Origin: a virus
Reading direction: 5' to 3' (one strand)
Length of the DNA: 14,957 nucleotides
Virus genome (UHGV): UHGV-1298062
Translations under genes and position numbers: made by a program
The notes under the pieces: model-generated
The model's input: only the letters and a program-made list of their open reading frames with translations
Told to the model about the DNA's origin: nothing
Database searches by the model: none
Shown here: one piece after another, positions 1 to 14,774 of the stretch
How the letters are laid out: each line of letters starts with the position of its first letter
Position numbering within the stretch: position 1 is the first letter of the stretch

Positions 1-86
1 GAAGCTCTACACTTTGAGCCTGTAAAATTGATTAAAAACTTATGTGTAAAATAGAACGCATTAGTCAGTAGCTAAGAGATGCAATA

Positions 87-2253: not shown

Positions 2254-2523
2254 ATGTCCGCACTGAAAAAGCAGCGCATCGATTTGAGATTAACCGATGA
2301 CGATAAAAGCATCATCGAGGAAGCTGCCGCAATGTCTAACCAGAGCATTACCCAGTTCATGGTTAGCAGTGCATCCGAACGTGCCGTGAAGGTGATAGAG
2401 CAACACCGTAGACTGGTTCTAAGTGAAGAGTCCTGGAATCTGGTTATGGATGCTATAAGCAATCCTCCGGCACCGAACGACAAGCTGAAACGAGCTGCCA
2501 ATCGTCTGAAAAGCATGGAGTAA
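2254..2523 (+). CDS. DUF1778-type ribbon-helix-helix antitoxin (AtaR/TacA/KacA family)
   Basis: ATG 2254 with GGGGG 5 nt upstream; 89 aa. The sequence (MSALKKQRIDLRLTDDDKSIIEEAAA...QFMVSSASERA...) matches my recollection of antitoxins paired with GNAT toxins. Only 8 nt separate it from the toxin gene. Confidence 0.82.
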   Translation: MSALKKQRIDLRLTDDDKSIIEEAAAMSNQSITQFMVSSASERAVKVIEQHRRLVLSEESWNLVMDAISNPPAPNDKLKRAANRLKSME

Positions 2524-2530
2524 TTTACTC

Positions 2531-3052
2531 GTGAGCAATACGACGATCGAGATTTTCTCTGGAGAGAACGATTATGATCTAAACGGTTTTGATTGCGGCG
2601 AAGAGTCACTAAACGCATTTTTGACCAACCACTTAAAAAGACAGCATGAAGGAAAAATTCTTCGCGCTTATGTGCTTTGCACTAAAGAAGAAATACCAAA
2701 GGTATTAGGTTATTACACTTTGTCAGGCAGCTGCTTTGAGAAAGAAACCTTACCTTCAAAGAGTCAGCAAAAGAAAGTGCCTTATCGGCATGTCCCAAGT
2801 ATCACTTTAGGCAGACTGGCTTTGGACAAATCTCTTCAAGGTCAGGGGCTTGGCTCAATGCTTGTAACTCACGCAATGCGTGTTGTGTACAATGCATCTC
2901 TTGCGGTAGGCATTCATGGGCTTTTCGTTGAGGCGTTGAACGATAAAGCCAGAGCGTTTTATAAAAGTTTGGGCTTTATCCAGCTGGTTGGTAACAACGA
3001 TCGTTCTTTGTTCTATCCAACAAAATCTATCGAAAAATTGTTCGAAGAATAA
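2531..3052 (+). CDS. GNAT-family acetyltransferase toxin (AtaT/TacT/KacT-like, tRNA-acetylating type)
   Basis: GTG 2531 is the only in-frame start, with GGAG 10 nt upstream; 173 aa. GNAT signature including the acetyl-CoA-binding block LQGQGLGSMLV. Conserved blocks (FDCGEE.LN.FL, ILRAY.LC, LGYYTL.GSCFE, PS.TLGRLA.D.SLQGQG, GIHGLFVEALN.KA..FYKSLGF) match tRNA-acetylating toxins as I recall them. Confidence 0.82.
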   Translation: MSNTTIEIFSGENDYDLNGFDCGEESLNAFLTNHLKRQHEGKILRAYVLCTKEEIPKVLGYYTLSGSCFEKETLPSKSQQKKVPYRHVPSITLGRLALDKSLQGQGLGSMLVTHAMRVVYNASLAVGIHGLFVEALNDKARAFYKSLGFIQLVGNNDRSLFYPTKSIEKLFEE

Positions 3053-4637: not shown

Positions 4638-5219
4638 TTACTCTGCTGGTATTGTTGGCCAGTCAATATCCGGTGCCGTTGATGTGTCAATGCGGTTCAA
4701 TAAAACTCTATACTTCTTCCATGCAGTCAGCAACGATGCTTCTTCCTCCGTTGCAATCTCCAAATCTACAGCATCCTGAAGTGGCGCAATGTGCTCGCTG
4801 GCTACCTGCATCAGACTTTTTTTTGTTTCTTCCGCTTCCCGTACCTGAAACAATTTTTCTGTTTCCTCATCCTTCTCCCAGGATGTGCCGTCCCACTTCT
4901 GATATTCCCCATCCGGTGATAACCAGGTGACATTTTCCGGTAATGGCCCAAGTTCAGAAATAAACAACGCGTCCCCTGATTCCACGTCATAGACCGTTTT
5001 ACCCCTGTGGTCTTCAACGAGACTCCATGATTTATTTTCGCTGTTGAATACGGCCACGAAGCCTGCCGGAATATCTGGCGGTGCAATATCGGTACTGTTT
5101 GCTGGCAGACCTGTATAAGGCGGAATATATGCGTCACCTTCACCAATAAATTCATTAGTTCCGGCCAGCAGATTATAAATTTTTATGGTCCGTGGTTGTT
5201 CACTCATTCTGAATGCCAT
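4638..5219 (-). CDS. tfa: tail fibre assembly protein Tfa (lambda Tfa-like)
   Basis: 193 aa. Matches phage lambda Tfa along its whole length as I recall it ([34 protein letters not shown]...[14 protein letters not shown]). ATG 5219 overlaps the stf stop (TAATG). Confidence 0.9.
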
Positions 5220-7933
5220 TATGCAAGCCTCACAATATAGTTAAATGCGATGTTTTTGACGGTGTTTTCCGCGTTACCAGCAGCGTTAACGGTGATGGTG
5301 TGTCCATGTGAACCAATCGCAACGGAGTGCGTATGAGCACCAATACCGACAGTATGTGTGTGTGCACCTGCGCTTGCAGCAGTACCCGATACAGAGTGCG
5401 TATGAGCGCCTGCAGAAGAAGTGTTAACACTGTATTTAGAATAATCAGGTGATCCACTTCCCGGAGCACCACTGGAACCACCTGAAACAAATGTCATCGA
5501 ATGGGTATGTGCACCGGCTGAAGCAGCCGTACCGCTAACACTATGGGTATGCGCACCAGTGTTATTCGTGGATTTAGTGCCGTAATCAAACGACGATGTG
5601 GTTTTCGTCCCCAAATCCGTACTGGATGCGCTGGCGCTGTGGGTGTGCGATTTAATGCCGTCCTGTTCCTGAGACAATACGGCACGACCACTGGCGGGCT
5701 TGCCCTTAATCGTCCAGCCACGCATATCAGGGATCACGCCTGACGGATACGCAACCGCAAGCAGGGGATAGGCTGCCTTATCAAAAGCCTGCCCCTGCAT
5801 AATGGCATAGCCTGTAGGTACTGAATCAGAAGGCCACGGAATCGCCGCACCTACCGGAAATGAATCCTGCGGCGTCCAAGGTGTCCAGCCACCCGTTGAA
5901 TACTGGCTGCGGGTATAGCTTCTGGATGTGTTATACACATAGTAAATTTGTGTTATTCCGGCATTTTTAAGCACAACCAGAGTGCCCGCAAGGTTCTCCG
6001 GGTATTTCAGCGATGCGCTTGCATTCGCATTCAGTGGCTGATGGTACAGCCCCGGCGTTTTGTAATTATCCAGATTCTGGTTTGCACCAATCTCAATACT
6101 CTGACTGTTAAAAATATCCTGCGATGTAACATTGACATCATTGGTCAGTGGTTTGCCATTGACCTTACGCTCGCCAGGAACGCGCCCGTTTGCATTATCA
6201 TTAGCTGCTTTCACTGCTTTCGGTGTCGCGGCAAACGTTTCAGATGCGCTGTTGGTTGCACTACTGAGCTGGACAATTCCTTTTTGTGCTGTCGTAGCGT
6301 CCTGAGCAGTATATTTCCCGTTAGCAAGGTCATAGGCTGCCTTTACCGACTTTGGCGTTGCCGCCAGCATTTCAGATGTGCTGTTGGTCGCGTTGCTAAG
6401 CTGAACTATCCCTTTCTGTGCTGTCGTTGCATCCTGTGCGGTGTATTTCCCGTTAGCCAGGTCATACGCGGCCTTAACGGCTTTTGGTGTTGCCGCCAGT
6501 GACTCGGAAGTACTGTTGGTCTCACTGCTAAGTTGTACTATTCCCTTATTCGTCGTGCTTGCATCCTCAAGCGCCACGGCGGATGCAATATCCTCTGCCC
6601 GTTTTGCCGCTGTCTCAGAGCGTGTTGCCGCGGATTCTGCCGCATTTTTGCTCTGCGCAGCCGCCGTCGCACTGTCTGCCGCTTCCGTCGCCTTCGTTGA
6701 TGCCGTTGTCGCACTCTCTGCTGCCGCTGACGCCTGGCGAGCGGCCTCATCTTTTGAAGATGACGCCGAGGAAGCTGAAACAGAGGCAGAGCTTGCAGAT
6801 TCGGCTGCTGTCTCCTTAGAAGCAGCGGCATTGTCTTCTGAAGTCTTTGCATTGGTTTCAGAAGATTTTGCCGCCTCTGCTGACTTTTCCGCAGCTGTTG
6901 CCTGTTCCGTCGCCTCTGTCGCTTTAGCGGTGGTATTTGCCGCAGATAACGAAGCGCTTTCCGCAGACTTTTCTGCCGACGTTGCACTTGATGAAGCACT
7001 ATCCGCGCTTATTGAGGCCGCGCTCGCTGACGTTTCTGCCGCAGATTTAGAACTGTTTGCAGACAATGCACTCTGTTCGGCAGCAGCTTCAGACGCTTTT
7101 GCGTTTGTCTCTGATGCTTTTGCTGCCTTACATGAATTTGCAGCTTCTGTAGCTGATGATGCTGCCGCGTTTGCACTCGATGAAGCGTTAGTCTCTGATA
7201 ATTTAGCCGCATCCTTAGATGCAGAGGCACTGGACGCTGATGTGGCTGCCTCCGATGCTTTAGTCGACGCCACAGATGCTGATTTTGCTGCCGCTTCTTT
7301 TGCCGCTTCTGCGTTTGTTTCAGATTTTTCCGCAGCAGCTGCACTCTCACTCGCCGCACTTTGTGAAGATACCGCAGCGGATGCACTTTGAGATGCCTGA
7401 GAGGCTTTTTCTACAGCAGTGTTGGCACTTTCTGCCGCAGCGACAGCACTGGCCGCCGCCTCCCGAGCTTTGTCTCCAGCGGCCTCAATCGCATCGGTGT
7501 TATTTTTATACCACTCAACGTTTTCGTTATGCTCGTTGACGATCTGCATTAGCGGCTTAACGGTCACTTCTGTACCGTCTTCACGCTCGATTGTCACATC
7601 ATCCAGAGCGGTCAACCAACTGCGCATGGACTTGGAATCAGCCGACATACGCGACATTAGTGCAGTAAAGCGCGCACTAAACTGAGTTAAGTCGCCTTCA
7701 TAGGTCGTAATGATTCGGCACGGAACTTTAGATTGAGTTTCGCCGGTATAAGGTTCTGAGAGGACAATGACCGTATCACTGGTTACGCGCTTGACCTCAT
7801 ACAACTTATTGTCAGGACCAATGACAATCATGCCCGGTAACACGCCGTTTTCGGTCAAATTCCAACGTGTTCCGATGCCTGATATTGTGTCGCTTCCTTT
7901 TGTAAATGTAACAGTACCTTCCCTGTACCACAT
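5219..7933 (-). CDS. stf: side tail fibre protein Stf (lambda Stf-like C-terminal part, different N-terminal domain)
   Basis: Preferred start ATG 7933 (AAGGAG 11 nt upstream); the ORF extends to GTG 7975. 904 aa. Ala/Ser-rich low-complexity shaft, three tandem tail-fibre repeats ([42 protein letters not shown]), C-terminal block matching lambda Stf ([45 protein letters not shown]) with HxH repeats. Confidence 0.9.
6190..6570 (-). repeat. about 2.8 tandem copies of a 132-bp in-frame repeat inside stf (phage tail-fibre repeat)
   Basis: Period seen directly: gtatatttcccgttagcaagg at 6309 and gtgtatttcccgttagccagg at 6441 (132 bp apart). Encodes the repeated KGIVQLSS...[19 protein letters not shown] unit. 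Boundaries approximate. Confidence 0.6.
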
Positions 7934-7953
7934 GTTCTTTTTCACTCCTTGAA

Positions 7954-7975
7954 GTGTGGGCGTCCTTGCCCACAC
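7954..7975 (-). other. GC-rich hairpin in the stf leader (8-bp stem gtgtgggc/gcccacac, 6-nt loop)
   Basis: Perfect inverted repeat at 7954-7961 and 7968-7975, 20 nt upstream of the stf AAGGAG RBS. No U-tract follows on the mRNA strand, so it is not a classical terminator. Confidence 0.4.
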
Positions 7976-8068: not shown

Positions 8069-11000
8069 TTAACTGATGCCCGACATGGAAAATGCGCCAC
8101 TTCCACGGCTGATTAGCATCACGGGCGAATAAATATGTGTCTGTGATGAACTGGTCACTTTTACCGTAACAGCAACAGTTCTTGAGGTAACATTGTTAAA
8201 AGCAGCGTAAAGAGTGCCACCGACGCCTGTAGATCTTGTTGAATTAAGATCAGGGTCTCTGTATGTTGCCCCCTTACCAGTGGCTGCGGTCTTCGTCACT
8301 CCATTGCAGGTAAATTGTGCTGCAACAGGGCCGACGCCCCCCGTATATACATTTATTGCCACATAAATATTTTTGGGCAATGCAGACGAAGAAGAGTCTG
8401 TATATGTCATTGTATATGTGCCGCTGTTACGAACTGAGAAGTCATTGCCCACATACATGTTAGCGACATCGCCTACGAAGTGATCTGCTTGTACCGTGCC
8501 TCTGAATGTTCCGCTGGTAGCCTGTATTTCTCCTGTGAATTTGCCATTCGTTGCGTAAACGGTGCCTCTAACAGTTACATTGTTAAACTCTGAGTTCCCG
8601 TTTTTATTAATATGCCACCCCGTCATCCCGCTTGAGTAATCGTTGGACTGAATGAAGTTGCCTATTTTGGCGTTATCAATGGTGCCGTTCTTGATATAAG
8701 CTCCGTTCATATAAGCCACACCGGCATCAATAACGAATGGCGTTGTAATTTTCCCATTAACGGAGTTCACCAAACCAAAGCGATCTGCCTGCACCAAAAA
8801 CTGCGATAGACCTGTTGTGTCGATGCCCAACGCTATGCCGGCAACATATTTTTGGCCTCCGCTGGTGGAGGTTTCCATTTTCAGCGTCCAGGCTGTTGAT
8901 ACCTTCTTGTTCGTATCAGCAATAGCTGTGGCCTGTTGTTGAATTGTTGCTGTATTTCCATCTACTGATGCTTTTAAGGTGTCAACTCTCCCACTTAGTG
9001 CATTGTCGGCGCTTGTACGCGTAGTCGCTTCAGATGTAATCGCAGCATGAATATCTTTGCTCGTTTGAGCCTGTAGATTAGTGATATTAGAAGCCAAAGC
9101 GGAATCAGCATCAGTTCTGGCTTTCGTCTCTTCAGCTACAGCCGCCTTAATATCCTTGCCCGTTTGACTCTTCAATGTAGTTATCTGTTGTGCCAAAGAT
9201 TCGTCGGCAGTTGCTCGGGCGTTTTTTTCTTCAGATATAGCGGCACTAATATCGCCTTCAACTTTGGCTTGTAACGATAGGACTTCTTTTGAAAGTGCTT
9301 CATCGGCACTGGCTCGCGCCTCTTGTTCACTCACAATTGCGGCAGAAATGTCATCGTTAATCTTTGATTCAAGTTTGGTGATTCTGCTTCCAATAGCATT
9401 ATCCGCATCTACACGAGCCGTAGTCTCTTCAGTGATTGAAGCTCTGATATCCTCATTTATTTCAGCTCTAATCTCTTCCATTTTCGTAGCCATTGCGGAC
9501 ATATCATCTGCAAAAGCCTTCTGAGTTGTGGCGATCCTGGCATTGCTCACCATCTGTTTGTGCTGGTCTTCATCCTGACGCAAAGCTAAATCGATGTTTG
9601 TTTTAGCCAATGCCTCAATGTTTGTCGTCACTTCGGCACTGGAGTGCTCGACTTCAGCCACGGTTTTTTTCATCTCTTCAATGGTGGCCAAACTGCTATC
9701 TACAGTTGACTTCATTGCCTCGATTTCTTTCGCGTTCGCCAAGTCGCCTTCGACTCGTGCCTCACGTTCCTCCGCAACTAAAGCCGATGAATTGTCCAGT
9801 GCTGCATTCGCGGCCTCAACCGCTCCAGCAACGACCTTGTCCTGCTCTGAAACAGTTTCCTTCAACTGAATTAATGCGGCATTTGAGTTTTCAACCTCCT
9901 TAAGAGCCTCTTCCACCTTGCTGACAGTATTAGAAACTTCCGTTCTAAGAACGTTTTGGGCTTCTTCAATCCGTTGATCGGTCTCAGTAAATTTGTCATC
10001 AAGGCTTTTCAGGCTTTCTTCCATCTGCTTGTTGATTGCGTCGACGGCTTCCTGCGAGGCTTTGGTGTCGATTTCCTCAAGCAGTTCCTGCCCCAATTCC
10101 GAAGAAGTGATCTTCCCGGTCAGGAAAGACAGAACATCTTTCGTCATCGCCTCAGTGCCCAAATTGGAGTTGGGCTGGCTCAACATTCCGCGTTTGTTTG
10201 CTGCACGAACCCAATAGAACCAAGTTTCGCTATCTCCAAGACCTGCGTGCGTAAAGGTGGTACTGGCTGCTTCGGCAATTAGTTTTGCAGTATCCAGGTT
10301 GTTGGTCCGGGATGCATACACGTTGATGTGATCGAGGTCGATTGAGTCCGGGTTAACCCAATTCAGAATCACATTGCGGTAGTCGCCCACGGCCGTCAGT
10401 GCAGTCGGTGCATCCGGCGGCGTCATCGTCCCCTGAACTTTGTAGACGGTGCTGATAATTTCTGTTTTTTTACCGTTGAATGAAACCGCATACAGTTGGA
10501 AGTCGTAGCGTCCATTCTCCGCGACATTAACGATTTCGTATTGCTCTTCGGTTACACGCGCCGATTGCCAGTTCGATACATTGTTTGCATCAGAACGTCG
10601 CCAACTGATCCAATACTCTGGAGATTTCCCTTCCCATGTTGCAGTCAGTTTTACTGACAGGTTGCCCGGGCTTGAGAGATAAGTCCCTTCAGTGATTTGC
10701 AAATTAGACGGCTTGGAGTAAGTCGGGTCCAATACCGTCGTATTCTGCGGGATAAGCGTTGCACCATTGTCGATCGCCTCATATTTAGACGGATTGTTTT
10801 CAACAGCGGTGATGTCAAAGCTACCCGACGTTTCCCCCTGAGCGATGTTAACGATGCGAACGCGCATAGGTTCGAGATCTGGTTCTGTAATTGTCCAGAC
10901 ACCGTTCAAAACAGGCGTTTCCGCTGACGACAGGGCTTTTGAAAACGTAACTTTTGTTATATTTTCGCCAGTTTCAAGAACATCGCGTTCAACGATTTTG

Positions 11001-12643
11001 CCTTCCTGATTCAGTATTCGAATAAAGCAGCCGCCTTTGGCTAACGACACAGGCGCATCGAGTGTGACGCTGTTTTTAGTAAACGCCACAATTCGACCTG
11101 AGTTACGTTTGCCTGCGCGATATTTGTTCTGAATCAGAACGGTTTCACCAGGCATCAAAAATGACGCGTCTAAGCCGGCAGTAAATGTAATTACATCCGA
11201 CTCCATTCTGGCGGTATATAAAAGCCACAAACCAACTCGGTGAGCCTGCCCTCGGCTTGTACAGCCAAATGCTACGACTTCTGTCTTACGCTCACCATAA
11301 CGGCGCATTGCGTCCTGATCTTCAACGTACTCGATGTTTTGCTTATAACCGTCCTCCTTGTTGTTGTAGGTTACGAGCGCAACGGATGGGCGATCTTTAC
11401 GCGCAGAACCTTTATAGGTAAACAATCCATCTTTGACGTTAGAGTTGGTAAACATCATTACCGGATCTGATGGGCTATCCTGCATGATGTTAACCATCCC
11501 ACCAGCCCAAAACACCATGCCGCGGAATGCTCCAGCAATATCCTGAATTAGCCGGTATGCGTCCTGTCGACTGGTGATCTGCGTATTGATTGCAAAGCGT
11601 TTCTCTTTGCCACCAAAGCCATCATCGACCTCTTCGTCACAATATCGACCAATCTGGTACAACTGGCCAAGGTCAATCATAGATTCCGACACATACTGAC
11701 CAAGGCCATATCGAGCATTGGTCAGCAAATCAAAGAGAATCCACGCAGGGTTTGAAGAAGACAACAGCTTAAAAGTACCGTCCCATACGCCGACATAAGT
11801 ATTGGTGTATTCGTTGTAGTTTGACGGTACTCGGATTTTTATACCGCGCACCAAATACGAACGGGAAGGCATTGTGCTACCAAACTGCTCTGAATTGACC
11901 TTCAAGCCAACAAGAGCAGAGTTAGGGTAGTTCATTGGCGTGTCGACAATTTCCCCGATGGAATCCACCCATGTATCGTTATAGAGATACTGAGTTTTGC
12001 TGTCGTCGGTTAGACGTATGACACGAACCTTATATGCACGGCCAGGTTTCGGCAGTTTGAGTTCATAGCTGCGGTAGTAAACACCTGTCTTCTTCGCTGT
12101 CAGTGCAATTTCAACGTCTTTCTCACCTTCAGCAACGACATCGGCAAATGTTCCATCGCCATTGGCAATCTGGAACTTGTATTTGACTGTTGTACCGTTG
12201 GTGTCGCCGGATTTCTTATCCACGGAACGTAGAGAGGGGAATTTGAGAATGAGTCGAACGCGGTCAGCTTCATCGTTATCGATGGAGACCGTGACATCAT
12301 GCGTCTTTTTCAACTGAATGTTGATGGACTTCGGCGTCTCGACGAAATCAAAACCGGCCATAGGCGTCTGATCTTGCGAACCATCGCGAAAATCCCATGT
12401 AATACCGCTGTAGTTTGCAGAGCCGTCTTCATTGAGGATCGGCAGGTCGTCGATAAAAATCGACTTTGCTCCGTCGACAAGACCGCCAATAACGCCTTCC
12501 CCGAGCAAGTCGAGGATGGACGCCATAGCACGCGAGTTAACGGTATCATCGGCTTCAACCGGCGTGCGGCTGGAGCTGCTGCTTTTCTTGCCGCCTGCAC
12601 CTGCGATCAGGAGAGGCAGTCTTTTCTTCTTGAACTGTTCCAT
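8069..12643 (-). CDS. J: tail tip host-specificity protein J (lambda gpJ family) with central coiled-coil insertion and divergent C-terminal domain
   Basis: Preferred start ATG 12643 (AAGGA 10 nt upstream); the ORF extends to TTG 12649. 1524 aa versus about 1130 aa for lambda J. Conserved gpJ blocks present (GKKSSSSSRTP N-terminus, VWDGTFK, AFGCTSRGQAHR.GLWL, YVAGI.LG....LSQFLV). Roughly 330 aa of coiled-coil repeats inserted in the middle; last ~140 aa unlike the lambda J C-terminus. Confidence 0.92.
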   Translation of the reverse strand: MEQFKKKRLPLLIAGAGGKKSSSSSRTPVEADDTVNSRAMASILDLLGEGVIGGLVDGAKSIFIDDLPILNEDGSANYSGITWDFRDGSQDQTPMAGFDFVETPKSINIQLKKTHDVTVSIDNDEADRVRLILKFPSLRSVDKKSGDTNGTTVKYKFQIANGDGTFADVVAEGEKDVEIALTAKKTGVYYRSYELKLPKPGRAYKVRVIRLTDDSKTQYLYNDTWVDSIGEIVDTPMNYPNSALVGLKVNSEQFGSTMPSRSYLVRGIKIRVPSNYNEYTNTYVGVWDGTFKLLSSSNPAWILFDLLTNARYGLGQYVSESMIDLGQLYQIGRYCDEEVDDGFGGKEKRFAINTQITSRQDAYRLIQDIAGAFRGMVFWAGGMVNIMQDSPSDPVMMFTNSNVKDGLFTYKGSARKDRPSVALVTYNNKEDGYKQNIEYVEDQDAMRRYGERKTEVVAFGCTSRGQAHRVGLWLLYTARMESDVITFTAGLDASFLMPGETVLIQNKYRAGKRNSGRIVAFTKNSVTLDAPVSLAKGGCFIRILNQEGKIVERDVLETGENITKVTFSKALSSAETPVLNGVWTITEPDLEPMRVRIVNIAQGETSGSFDITAVENNPSKYEAIDNGATLIPQNTTVLDPTYSKPSNLQITEGTYLSSPGNLSVKLTATWEGKSPEYWISWRRSDANNVSNWQSARVTEEQYEIVNVAENGRYDFQLYAVSFNGKKTEIISTVYKVQGTMTPPDAPTALTAVGDYRNVILNWVNPDSIDLDHINVYASRTNNLDTAKLIAEAASTTFTHAGLGDSETWFYWVRAANKRGMLSQPNSNLGTEAMTKDVLSFLTGKITSSELGQELLEEIDTKASQEAVDAINKQMEESLKSLDDKFTETDQRIEEAQNVLRTEVSNTVSKVEEALKEVENSNAALIQLKETVSEQDKVVAGAVEAANAALDNSSALVAEEREARVEGDLANAKEIEAMKSTVDSSLATIEEMKKTVAEVEHSSAEVTTNIEALAKTNIDLALRQDEDQHKQMVSNARIATTQKAFADDMSAMATKMEEIRAEINEDIRASITEETTARVDADNAIGSRITKLESKINDDISAAIVSEQEARASADEALSKEVLSLQAKVEGDISAAISEEKNARATADESLAQQITTLKSQTGKDIKAAVAEETKARTDADSALASNITNLQAQTSKDIHAAITSEATTRTSADNALSGRVDTLKASVDGNTATIQQQATAIADTNKKVSTAWTLKMETSTSGGQKYVAGIALGIDTTGLSQFLVQADRFGLVNSVNGKITTPFVIDAGVAYMNGAYIKNGTIDNAKIGNFIQSNDYSSGMTGWHINKNGNSEFNNVTVRGTVYATNGKFTGEIQATSGTFRGTVQADHFVGDVANMYVGNDFSVRNSGTYTMTYTDSSSSALPKNIYVAINVYTGGVGPVAAQFTCNGVTKTAATGKGATYRDPDLNSTRSTGVGGTLYAAFNNVTSRTVAVTVKVTSSSQTHIYSPVMLISRGSGAFSMSGIS
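8975..9470 (-). repeat. five tandem 99-bp in-frame repeats inside J (33-aa coiled-coil units)
   Basis: Repeat landmarks at about 9051, 9150, 9249, 9348 and 9447 give a 99-bp period. Encodes five units of the form DI.AAI..E...R..AD.AL...I..L. Copies are diverged; boundaries approximate. Confidence 0.55.
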
Positions 12644-12659
12644 GTTCAAAAAATCCTTA

Positions 12660-13253
12660 TTACATAAGCTGGTCGATGGTGATAGAAGAACTCACAACCT
12701 GCGAGCCAACCAAAATTTCCTCTCCATAGATCAGCTGCACCGGGTTTCCCTGGTTAGTGGTGTTCTGCGGCCCATCGAAATAGAACGAGTCGGAGTTATC
12801 TGCCTGTCTTACACTTTCGTTAGTGGCTTGCGGAGATATGATTTGCGCTATACCGCCCATCATCAGTGACAAACCGAGAGGTGCTAAAGCAGGCATCATT
12901 ACCGCCGATACAACCAACAAAGCGGCTCCTACTACCGTCTGAAACCACCCAAAAGCAGAACCGCCGCTTCCTCGCGGAACAGGGGTAATGCGGATTTTGG
13001 CTATGTTGTCAGACTGCCCCATCATCTGATATTCACTCTCGTCCACAGACCACTTGTGGCCCTGTTTATTGGTGATCTGGATGTGGTATCTGTCATAGGT
13101 TTTGATGTTGCGCTTCATCCATGCTTTAAACCCAGGCTTGTTGGCCTCAATTAAATCCAGAGCCTGCTTGGTGTTGCGAACTTTCAAATGCCAGTGACGA
13201 CCAAAATGTTTGGCCATAGGGCCGCCAAGTTGCACATGAACTAACTCAGACAC
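12660..13253 (-). CDS. I: tail assembly protein I (lambda gpI-like)
   Basis: GTG 13253 with GGGAG 7 nt upstream; start lies 10 nt inside the 3' end of K. 197 aa. N-terminal ubiquitin-like region (VHVQLGGPMAKHFGRHWHLKV, compare lambda ARICLYGDLQRFGRRIDLRV), hydrophobic Gly/Ala-rich middle, C-terminal VQLIYGEEILVGSQVVS (compare lambda VLPVLYGEMRVGSRVVS). Confidence 0.85.
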   Translation of the reverse strand: MSELVHVQLGGPMAKHFGRHWHLKVRNTKQALDLIEANKPGFKAWMKRNIKTYDRYHIQITNKQGHKWSVDESEYQMMGQSDNIAKIRITPVPRGSGGSAFGWFQTVVGAALLVVSAVMMPALAPLGLSLMMGGIAQIISPQATNESVRQADNSDSFYFDGPQNTTNQGNPVQLIYGEEILVGSQVVSSSITIDQLM

Positions 13254-14038
13254 TTTTCATCTCCCTTGAGTAAGTCTCTGTGACGCAGATGGTGCGTCGT
13301 ATGTTTCTGGTACATGCCGCCGTAATAAGCGCGACAACTCAGGCGGTCGATTTGGTGATGCAGGATCATGCCGTCTCCGATATACACCGCGCAGTGATCA
13401 GGCATTTTCCCGTACTGGATGAAGAAGACATCGCCGCGCTGCGGCTCCGTCCCTGGCGCAAGACGCACAAGCCCTTCATTTCGATAGTTATGGTCGAGAA
13501 TGTCATCATCACCCGTGTACCATGACGGAATATGCAGATGCGCATTCGGGTTCAGCTCGACACCAAACTCTCGTTTCAGATAGTCGCGACAAAGCATCCA
13601 GCAGTCGAAGACGCCGAACACATAGGGTCGGCCCAGATAAGGCATCTCAAAGCCGTCTGGGGTGATCACATTCATTTCACTGAAGTGAAATGGCGCATCG
13701 CCCTCGATGTTCTTGCGAACAGCCAGAATCAGCCACGGAACTTCCGTTGCCTCACATCCGGCGCGGTCGGCGTCTGACGCATCAGCAGATTCGTCAGTAT
13801 GGGAGTGCCAGATGGCAACCACGTCTCCCGCATCTTCCGCAGTGATAATGTCGTCAGCGTGCATAACAAACGTGTTTTCCGGGTGCTCCGACACGTTCCG
13901 GGCTTCAATGAAGCGATATTTCTCGCCAGTGGTACGCACCAGAAAGCCACACGCTTCGTTCGGGTAACGTTTAATGGCTGTCAGATAGATTTCCTGCATA
14001 ACGTCCGAACCAAGCTCCGGGAATACTCTATTGCCCAT
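13241..14038 (-). CDS. K: tail assembly protein K (lambda gpK-like; JAB/MPN plus NlpC/P60-type domains)
   Basis: N-terminal region resembles a JAB/MPN domain (NEACGFLV ... IWHSHTD) and the C-terminal region resembles the NlpC/P60-type part of gpK (FDCWMLCRDY ... HCAVYIGDG). Start uncertain: ORF opens at TTG 14065; in-frame ATGs at 14038 (chosen, overlaps the L stop by 11 nt) and 13999. Confidence 0.82.
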   Translation of the reverse strand: MGNRVFPELGSDVMQEIYLTAIKRYPNEACGFLVRTTGEKYRFIEARNVSEHPENTFVMHADDIITAEDAGDVVAIWHSHTDESADASDADRAGCEATEVPWLILAVRKNIEGDAPFHFSEMNVITPDGFEMPYLGRPYVFGVFDCWMLCRDYLKREFGVELNPNAHLHIPSWYTGDDDILDHNYRNEGLVRLAPGTEPQRGDVFFIQYGKMPDHCAVYIGDGMILHHQIDRLSCRAYYGGMYQKHTTHHLRHRDLLKGDEKCLS

Positions 14039-14729
14039 AACGCGTTGCCCCAATGAACCCGCCAAAGTGGATTACGCCATTGGCAAAGTAGTTGCGCCGT
14101 GCGTTGCATGAGTCGTAACGTTTCGTGCAGCAATCCGCTCCTGACATGGTGGTTTGCTGGTTGTTTTTGTCGAAGTACGGACCGGTGTAGCCGCACTCTG
14201 GTCCGCGGTATCTCCACGGGCATGTGTTTTTGATGATCTGGCGGTACGGCAGCTGCACGCCCATCAGATCGAACACACTCGACAGCTCAAACTCGACGAC
14301 CTCATGGGTTTCGAGAGTCTTCTGTTCGATGAACCACATCTCATCCGGGAAGTGCTGATTTGGATCTGCGGTTGGATTCCCGTCTTTGAAGTTGGCCTCG
14401 TCGAGAAAACGCGCCAGCGTCATCTTGCGGATGATGCGGCAACCCACCAGATCGTCGTTTGCCTGAACTTCAGCGGAGACAGTTCCGGCAAAGTTGGAGA
14501 CCTGGATTTTTGGACGCGGCAAAGTACCCTGACCAGTCTTATCAAAGCCTGACGCTTTGATTGGCCACGGTTCGTAGGACACGCCTTGCCAAACAACCGG
14601 CTCCATCAGCTCGTTTGTACCAGCGTGGAAATATAGCTTGCCTCCAGAGGTGGTGTTCGACATATCAAGTTCGAACAGTTCAATGAGCGCGGAGGGCGAC
14701 AAGCTCTGAATATCAGCTTTAATACCCAT
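14028..14729 (-). CDS. L: minor tail protein L (lambda gpL-like)
   Basis: Preferred start ATG 14729 (AAGGAAG 5 nt upstream); the ORF extends to ATG 14762. 233 aa. Matches lambda L blocks (WQG..Y.P.PI..SGF...G.G...P...VSN, R...ARFLD..NF.....ADP, NTC.W.YRG.ECGY.GP, C.K....C..R.N..NFGGF). Confidence 0.88.
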   Translation of the reverse strand: MGIKADIQSLSPSALIELFELDMSNTTSGGKLYFHAGTNELMEPVVWQGVSYEPWPIKASGFDKTGQGTLPRPKIQVSNFAGTVSAEVQANDDLVGCRIIRKMTLARFLDEANFKDGNPTADPNQHFPDEMWFIEQKTLETHEVVEFELSSVFDLMGVQLPYRQIIKNTCPWRYRGPECGYTGPYFDKNNQQTTMSGADCCTKRYDSCNARRNYFANGVIHFGGFIGATRYGQ

Positions 14730-14751
14730 TGTTTCTTCCTTGAAATAAAAA

Positions 14752-14774
14752 GGCGCCAACATCCTGTCAGCGCC
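14752..14774 (-). other. terminator-like hairpin just upstream of the L ribosome-binding site
   Basis: ggcgc / gcgcc 5-bp GC stem (14752-14756 and 14770-14774) with 13-nt loop. On the minus-strand transcript it is followed by UUUUUAUUU and then the L RBS. Short stem and large loop, so strength is doubtful. Confidence 0.3.

Follow-up and report, generated by a model that had tools for sequence, protein, structure and literature searches.

A central tail fibre that changes its fold on contact with a cell has been described for the F-type pyocins, and we compare with it here the product of gene J (8069..12649, minus strand) of the UHGV virus genome UHGV-1298062, analysed as one stretch of 14,957 bp (the window) that we assign to an SSU5-like phage-plasmid. 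In pyocin F7, residues 921-1083 of the central fibre (163 residues) are reported to leave their trimeric coiled-coil state on cell contact and to refold as a triangular β-prism with one antiparallel sheet per subunit; this refolding is reported to open the tail tip and eject the tape-measure protein (PMC12874032). The strands of the prism follow the motif SxSxxMxxLxS, read along the strand, in which S denotes small residues buried at the prism corners; glutamine at A987/A995 (and at V1010/A1017) abolished killing and left assembly unaffected, glutamine at A998/A1011 was neutral, and Glu1039, at an M position, is paired with Arg1043 (PMC12874032). Both states were predicted by AlphaFold for 21 of 24 siphophage central fibres (PMC12874032), and in reports from 2026 the shaft of the pyocin is a trimeric coiled coil with the side fibres attached to it (10.64898/2026.02.24.707460; PMC13455828).

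Phage T1 gp33 (9l9p) and lambda gpJ (8iyk, 8xcj) are further points of comparison. Like J, gp33 has a lambda-like tip and a longer C-terminal fibre; its residues 821-1172 were unresolved, and an AlphaFold3 α/β model was given (PMC11945409). The region of gp33 that aligns to the J repeats described below (850-1022) itself has near-identical tandem units, which differ from those of J in sequence and spacing. Lambda gpJ is collinear with J over J residues 22-863 and 1231-1419 and shares its gene order and its β-prism central straight fibre; unlike J, it runs directly from residue ~838 to residue ~840, the two being practically adjacent, without the ~367 helical residues that J has at this point.

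Within this insertion, J carries five in-frame tandem units of 99 bp, or 33 residues each (residues 1064-1228; 8966..9460, minus strand). On balance, we consider it probable that these repeats form the last 165 residues, at the distal end, of an α-helical shaft of ~370 residues that belongs to the pyocin-type fold-switching family, in which one unit would be one future β-hairpin.

Correspondence with the F-type pyocin fibre

When the coil region of J was compared alone with the PDB, it matched phage T1 gp33 (9l9p_S, residues 850-1022, E = 3.1e-10), the chain 9ze4_N (E = 3.4e-08) and the F2-pyocin fibre (25vf_A, residues 970-1089, E = 5.7e-07); when the tip domain was added to the query, J residues 1136-1352 matched 25vf_A residues 970-1185 at E = 2.2e-27 (phmmer). 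Judged from these alignments, the repeat block is homologous to the coiled coil of the F-type pyocin central fibre. Positions of F7 were mapped onto the units by numbering the 25vf residues in the HMMER alignment; under it, all residues that the F7 preprint names have the identity given there, and F2 and F7 therefore agree in the aligned stretch.

The M-position residue E1039 of F7 maps to unit position 12 and its salt-bridge partner R1043 to position 16, and in 77 distinct units E12 (100%), R16 (100%) and D20 (96%) reproduce the i+4 salt-bridge pattern of the F7 preprint. The glutamine-sensitive corners A987, A995, V1010 and A1017 map to positions 24, 32, 15 and 22, respectively, all of which are small (A/S/T/V/G) in 100% of these units. 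The neutral controls A998 and A1011 map to positions 2 and 16, which are not conserved as small. Every unit carries the strand motif twice in opposite orientations, as SxLxxMxxSxS at positions 7-17 (reversed) and as SxSxxMxxLxS at positions 22-32 (forward), and all 10 strands expected in the window fit it at all five motif positions. Thirteen motif matches lie in the repeat block, where 2000 shuffles gave 2.9 ± 1.6; the proximal helix (residues 849-1063) holds three, or 1.4 per 100 residues. Division of the unit into three 11-residue strands (33 = 3 x 11) was considered and rejected: there are just two clean fits of the motif, a third match (positions 15-25) overlaps both others, and the residue assignments of F7 are recovered only with two strands per unit.

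These small residues bear on a rival explanation, in which the repeats are a passive spacer: a coiled coil that never refolds and whose one effect is to make the central fibre longer, the gain or loss of units fitting its reach to the thickness of the O-antigen or capsule. A continuous helix is predicted across the shaft, lineages differ between 4 and 10 copies in whole units of ~4.9 nm, and copy number assorts independently of the C-terminal receptor-binding type, all of which agree with such a spacer. It leaves unexplained, however, why seven solvent-exposed positions (7, 8, 15, 17, 22, 24 and 32) are occupied by small residues in 91-100% of units, why these include the positions whose enlargement killed pyocin activity with assembly intact, and why strand motifs are restricted to the repeats, with hardly any in the upstream helix. 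We therefore regard a purely static spacer as rather unlikely.

The F-type pyocin fibre (F7 CFP; PyoF10/PA0641 of F2, 25vf) has, like J, a J-like hub with FNIII domains, a long helical shaft and a β-prism. Strand motif, conserved small positions and E/R/D salt-bridge pattern are common to both, and the part that bears the motif is of similar length, with 165 residues in J and 163 in the pyocin. The two differ in the regularity of the segment, with five clean 33-residue units in J and more degenerate units at 32-residue spacing in the pyocin, and in the coil itself, which is described as a heptad with a stutter in the pyocin and has a period of 33/9 in the J repeat block.

Repeat units and the helical shaft

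The presence of five diverged 99-bp, 33-residue tandem repeats, first proposed in a sequence-only reading of the window, is borne out by periodicity far beyond that of shuffled sequences at both the protein and the DNA level. When the J protein was offset against itself, the mean BLOSUM62 score was 2.05 at 33 residues, 1.76 at 66 and 2.08 at 99, whereas in 500 shuffles the score of the best offset had a mean of 0.15 and a maximum of 0.52; DNA identity at a lag of 99 nucleotides was 0.513, against 0.299 ± 0.022 in 1000 codon shuffles (maximum, 0.369). That reading had placed the repeats at 8975-9470, which is the right location but ~10 nucleotides off and without a strand. Its consensus, DI.AAI..E...R..AD.AL...I..L, agrees with the 77 distinct units, in which D4, I5, A7, E12, R16, D20, L23, I27 and L30 are conserved at 86-100%.

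All units lie on the minus strand. Unit 1 (residues 1064-1096; 9362..9460; INEDIRASITEETTARVDADNAIGSRITKLESK) scored 59.4 bits against a hidden Markov model (HMM) of the unit. Unit 2 (residues 1097-1129; 9263..9361; INDDISAAIVSEQEARASADEALSKEVLSLQAK) and unit 3 (residues 1130-1162; 9164..9262; VEGDISAAISEEKNARATADESLAQQITTLKSQ) were recognized by unit comparison, the unit HMM and the strand motif, unit 4 (residues 1163-1195; 9065..9163; TGKDIKAAVAEETKARTDADSALASNITNLQAQ), the type duplicated in six-copy alleles, by unit comparison and the unit HMM, and unit 5 (residues 1196-1228; 8966..9064; TSKDIHAAITSEATTRTSADNALSGRVDTLKAS), inside which the helix predicted by AlphaFold2 (AF2) stops at residue ~1219, likewise by unit comparison and the unit HMM. 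A degenerate sixth unit (residues 1229-1261; 8867..8965, minus strand) has lost the consensus, is 0-9% identical to the other units in amino acid sequence and is predicted to form β-strands; we consider it a candidate for "seed" strands at the start of the β-prism.

Between pairs of units, 39-51% of amino acids and 41-57% of nucleotides are identical; third codon positions agree at 30%, and the longest identical in-register run between any two units is 10 nucleotides. Because the units are so diverged, DNA repeat tools miss the array: Tandem Repeats Finder with a minimum score of 30 reported no array in J, and a DNA repeat search of J returned only short fragments. The array was therefore analysed by offset scoring and with the HMM, which was built from the five units. 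The repeat block matched no Pfam or NCBIfam model and, in PHROGs, only generic "tail fiber protein" families. The divergence indicates that the units are old and makes current slippage implausible.

The repeats do not make up the whole of the extra length relative to lambda J, as the sequence-only reading had supposed; they contribute 165 residues, which is under half of the ~367 inserted. The insertion is a predicted α-helical shaft situated between the FNIII domains and the β-prism Phage_Tail_Tip domain, and its proximal part (residues 849-1063; 9461..10105, minus strand), 215 non-repetitive residues that AF2 predicts as α-helical, is likewise absent from lambda J. For a target of residues 833-1103, the AF2 monomer model had helix at residues 849-1022 and 1028-1102. 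Helix was also predicted at residues 1056-1219, with a predicted local distance difference test (pLDDT) score of >90 up to residue ~1195, followed by strands at residues 1223-1229, 1232-1244 and 1250-1261 with a pLDDT of only ~50. These predictions support the earlier description of the repeats as a coiled-coil block, and the J shaft is presumably a trimeric coiled coil. In a Foldseek search of the PDB with the AF2 model, the β-prism part alone was matched, to lambda gpJ. Matches of the upstream helix to influenza HA2 in phmmer (E = 0.2-1) were treated as chance coiled-coil similarity.

The description "heptad-like", in contrast, does not fit the repeats. Their hydrophobic period is 3.667 (33/9, or three hendecads; z = 6.7), which is compatible with a coiled coil, and there is no power at 3.5 (z = -1.0), so that a heptad coil was rejected for the block; in this analysis a 33-residue repeat permits only harmonics of 33. 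The period of the proximal helix is 3.55 (z = 11). Within the proximal helix, residues 955-981 (~9707-9787) scored 8 bits against the unit HMM, a weak and isolated match, and hold two strand-motif matches (ALVAEEREARV at 956); they may represent the relic of a unit.

The only predicted break in the shaft, at residues 1023-1027 (9569..9583, minus strand; non-helical residues 191-195 of the AF2 target, with pLDDT <50), lies within TNIDLALRQDEDQHKQ. This segment (flanks at residues 1015-1031) is near-identical in all SSU5-like alleles examined, including the phages with 9 and 10 units. Because the side fibres anchor at a kink in the F-pyocin shaft, this segment may, by analogy, be the docking site of the side fibres in J. 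A different proposal is that the repeats themselves are a docking platform, at which the side tail fibres encoded downstream would bind the shaft at periodic sites. F-type pyocins do attach three side-fibre trimers to the coiled coil of the central fibre, and a side-fibre gene and its chaperone gene follow J; however, the pyocin site is a single kink and not a periodic array, the only helix break predicted in J is upstream of the repeats, and three side fibres have no need of 4 to 10, or 21, equivalent sites. We give little credence to a periodic platform, which would in any case be compatible with a fold-switching shaft and is not a true alternative to it.

Unit number in SSU5-like relatives and distant J-like proteins

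The J protein of SSU5 (gp20) and those of SSU5-like elements (the phages Cyrano and PhiR41_1 and plasmids of Yersinia, Klebsiella, Enterobacter and Citrobacter) are 76-99% identical in nucleotide sequence to the window's J over the matched part and carry the same type of unit; copy number varies among them, and their C-terminal receptor-binding parts differ from that of the window. Counted as matches to the five-unit HMM, 5 units are present in the window, in SSU5 and in 100 of the 120 nearest 90%-identity clusters, and 6 units in 19 clusters (1425/1426-, 1543- and 1562-residue proteins, one named Klebsiella aerogenes by the source). One protein of 1353 residues (P0114) has 4 units, phage PhiR41_1 has 9 and phage Cyrano has 10; lambda J had no match to the unit HMM. 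The variation expected by the sequence-only reading is therefore real; a single fixed insertion in all relatives, which had been set beforehand as the outcome that would speak against it, does not occur, since relatives have 4, 5, 6, 9 and 10 copies.

Changes in copy number were of whole units throughout. In P0114, the fourth unit joins unit 4 to unit 5 of the five-copy type exactly in register (TGKDI / NAAITSE...), the six-copy alleles carry a duplicated unit 4, and another protein (P0118) lacks unit 2 but has a duplicated unit 4. Five copies occur in proteins of 1386, 1518 and 1526 residues and six copies in proteins of 1426, 1543 and 1562 residues, which indicates that unit number and C-terminal receptor-binding type combine independently. 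Cyrano J (residues 1286-1317) and PhiR41_1 J (residues 1246-1277) each contain one unit of 32 residues (ANDLEASLARE...). Four six-unit alleles (P0043, P0104, P0116 and P0117) have 6-7 additional residues in the proximal helix at residues ~880-900 (ELDQSLSELGGKLEDTSDRLEQAQ), and shaft length therefore varies at two places.

Whether units are exchanged often is a separate matter. The sequence-only reading had suggested slippage or recombination as a current mechanism, which would make the array a contingency locus whose 99-bp repeats frequently change copy number by slippage or RecA recombination and produce length heterogeneity within a population. The in-frame tandem arrangement and the exact fusion in P0114 would suit such a locus. 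The nucleotide sequences contradict it: identity between units is low, their identical runs are short, the agreement of third positions is near random, and the youngest duplicate pair, in a six-copy allele, shares just 65 of 99 nucleotides. Among the matches listed, moreover, full-length plasmid alleles of at least 92% identity are all 4581 or 4584 bp long, with constant array length across various hosts and countries; the array is stable on short time scales. The contingency locus was rejected on these grounds and is hardly credible, and the idea of the J array as a hypermutable repeat is corrected accordingly.

Related units extend well beyond the SSU5-like group. A HMMER search with J residues 1031-1420 returned 4584 representative clusters at E ≤ 1e-3, and the best 150 of these had 1-25 unit-HMM matches per protein, spaced mostly at 32 residues, then at 33, 36, 39 and 34. 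Four of five distant proteins checked against Pfam were J-like. In two of them, P0122 (21 units, the largest array confirmed in a J-like protein) and P0124 (9 units), FNIII-A_GpJ and Phage-tail_3 are followed by the array and then directly by Phage_Tail_Tip; P0132 (25 matches) has no Pfam domain, and its matches are scattered, not in one array, with spacing alternating between 32 and 34. Across 660 adjacent unit pairs from the 150 distant proteins, positions 7, 9, 15, 17, 22, 24, 27, 30 and 32 are conserved at 93-100% in 43 of 45 position-by-length cells, the exceptions being position 27 in 39-residue units (0.57) and position 15 in 34-residue units (0.89). Conservation is lost at positions 4-5, and the change in unit length (32, 33, 34, 36 or 39 residues) therefore sits in the linker between units.

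A shaft of the fold-switching type would accommodate these patterns. A residue advances 1.5 Å in a helix, and neighbouring strands are 4.8 Å apart. Before the switch, each unit would form nine helical turns, or ~4.9 nm of coil; after it, the same unit would provide two antiparallel strands, that is, one β-hairpin and ~1 nm of prism. The shaft would in this sense be spring-loaded, its coiled coil refolding to a β-prism, and the number of copies would determine how far the fibre reaches as well as how large the refolding segment is. By standard geometry, and not by measurement, five units would correspond to ~24.5 nm of coil or ~4.8 nm of prism, with a shortening of ~4 nm per unit. An equivalence of one unit to one hairpin would explain both the gain and loss of whole units and the confinement of length variation to linkers; with an odd number of strands, the chain would run on in the opposite direction. 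Units would be gained or lost by rare events over evolutionary time and not by ongoing slippage. More tentatively, we propose that the ~33-residue unit is a quantal β-hairpin block and that lineages tune reach and refolding energy by whole units, from 4 to 10 in SSU5-like elements and up to 21 in the Pfam-confirmed distant J-like protein, although we hold this extension to be somewhat less likely than not to be correct.

Several points weigh against a fold switch in J. The switch has been documented experimentally for the pyocin alone, in a preprint that reports its absence from lambda and T5 (PMC12874032), and SSU5-like phages are not named in its main text; the F-type pyocin is a tailocin, whereas J belongs to a DNA-injecting temperate phage-plasmid. 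The J shaft is about twice as long as that of the pyocin and includes the non-repetitive proximal part of 215 residues. In the AF2 monomer, modelled from an alignment of 35 sequences, the repeats were helical throughout, with no β state (two further homologue searches made to deepen the alignment yielded 26 and 28 matches, mostly fragments), and the "seed" strands after the coil were predicted with low pLDDT. An Ala-rich hendecad coil could keep its small residues for other reasons, such as tight trimer packing or side-fibre docking. Finally, the four-copy protein P0114 comes from one database entry that lacks an underlying contig.

Gene J, its neighbours and the SSU5-like phage-plasmids

The assignment of J as a lambda-J-like central tail-fibre gene, which the sequence-only reading had made, is upheld by its Pfam domains and by the gene order. 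The open reading frame has 1526 codons from a TTG; the RefSeq start, an ATG at 12643, lies two codons inside and gives the 1524 residues stated earlier, and some database entries (P0001) still carry the 1526-residue form. RefSeq names the product "phage tail tip fiber protein", and in PHROGs it falls in phrog_31, "central tail fiber J". The hub and FNIII part (residues 1-848; 10106..12649, minus strand) is collinear with lambda gpJ residues 3-838 (J residues 22-863 against 8iyk_J, E = 2.7e-134), also matches the F2-pyocin fibre (25vf_A, residues 7-845) and contains the domains FNIII-A_GpJ (residues 103-237, E = 2.7e-29), Phage-tail_3 (residues 359-522, E = 1.4e-34) and fn3 (residues 646-729). 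The β-prism of the central straight fibre corresponds to Phage_Tail_Tip (DUF1983; residues 1235-1370; 8540..8947, minus strand; E = 1.4e-45), and it matches a lambda gpJ fragment both in sequence (8xcj_Z, E = 1.3e-15, phmmer) and as an AF2 model (8xcj_F, E = 4.6e-10, Foldseek). The C-terminal part (residues 1371-1526; 8072..8539, minus strand), which is presumably receptor-binding, differs among the 1386-, 1426-, 1526- and 1543-residue allele classes: only the near-99% cluster spans 100% of the query J, all other matches span 87-92%, and DNA matches of the 80-88% identity class begin at query base 589-622 of J. The curated cut-off of the NCBIfam model lambda_TipJ (NF049904) was missed (563 bits, against 1950). 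J is on this score a relative and not an equivalog, and the model, of the "exception" type, is evidently tuned to close kin of lambda J.

Gene J of the window is 99.8% identical to that of circular Escherichia coli plasmids of ~106-131 kb, such as NZ_CP101235, and 80% identical to that of Salmonella phage SSU5; in complete E. coli genomes, all 238 gene-J matches were on plasmids and none on chromosomes. From these matches, the window is therefore assigned as the tail-tip module of an SSU5-like phage-plasmid. According to the open reading frames, Pfam and the RefSeq annotation of a 99.8% identical plasmid, the minus strand encodes gene L (14028..14762), gene K (13241..14065; JAB and NlpC/P60), gene I (12660..13253) and J in this order, followed by a side tail-fibre gene, stf (5219..7975; Phage_fiber_2 and Collar), and a tail-fibre assembly chaperone gene, tfa (4638..5219).

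Some further features of these elements were noted. The side tail-fibre gene has a 132-bp tandem repeat of its own at 6238-6547 (2.3 copies, 79% matches), which Tandem Repeats Finder detected; it falls where Pfam finds Phage_fiber_2 repeats, and its DNA is far less diverged than that of the J repeats. At 2254-3052, on the plus strand, the RefSeq annotation of a near-identical plasmid shows neighbouring genes for a DUF1778 protein and a GNAT N-acetyltransferase, beside an AAA ATPase gene and a GIY-YIG gene. The pairing of DUF1778 and GNAT genes is an arrangement typical of toxin-antitoxin pairs. On plasmid NZ_CP115313, a J allele of 99.5% identity is split by an IS3-family IS1203 element, and this phage-plasmid probably cannot make a functional tail tip. 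A protein of 500 residues (P0307) joins an unrelated N terminus to the last half-unit and tip domain of the window's exact J allele; its Pfam list includes the ParB-like PF02195, and it may come from a rearranged or misassembled locus.

The sequence-only reading had seen in the array a means of changing fibre length as an adaptation to host range or envelope depth. Our comparisons point more to a segment of the F-type pyocin fold-switching kind than to a length adaptation. In the best-supported reading, J is a further case of the recently described fold-switching central-fibre shafts, in which the segment is modular and unit number varies across SSU5-like phage-plasmids. A module of discrete units, each with two antiparallel strand motifs, and natural alleles with 4, 5, 6, 9 and 10 units appear to be new: no description of the unit structure or of its copy-number variation was found in the literature searched, and the word "repeat" does not occur in the F7 preprint (PMC12874032), although such absence is no proof of novelty.

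SSU5-like elements account for 581 plasmid records and occur commonly in E. coli, Salmonella, Klebsiella, Enterobacter and Yersinia; they are reported to carry resistance genes (PMC9600943). The energy source with which non-contractile tails breach the cell envelope is an open question. If the fold switch holds in SSU5-like phage-plasmids, the mechanism would extend to a clinically relevant group, and the alleles that differ in unit number would then form a natural allelic series bearing on how non-contractile tails power envelope penetration.

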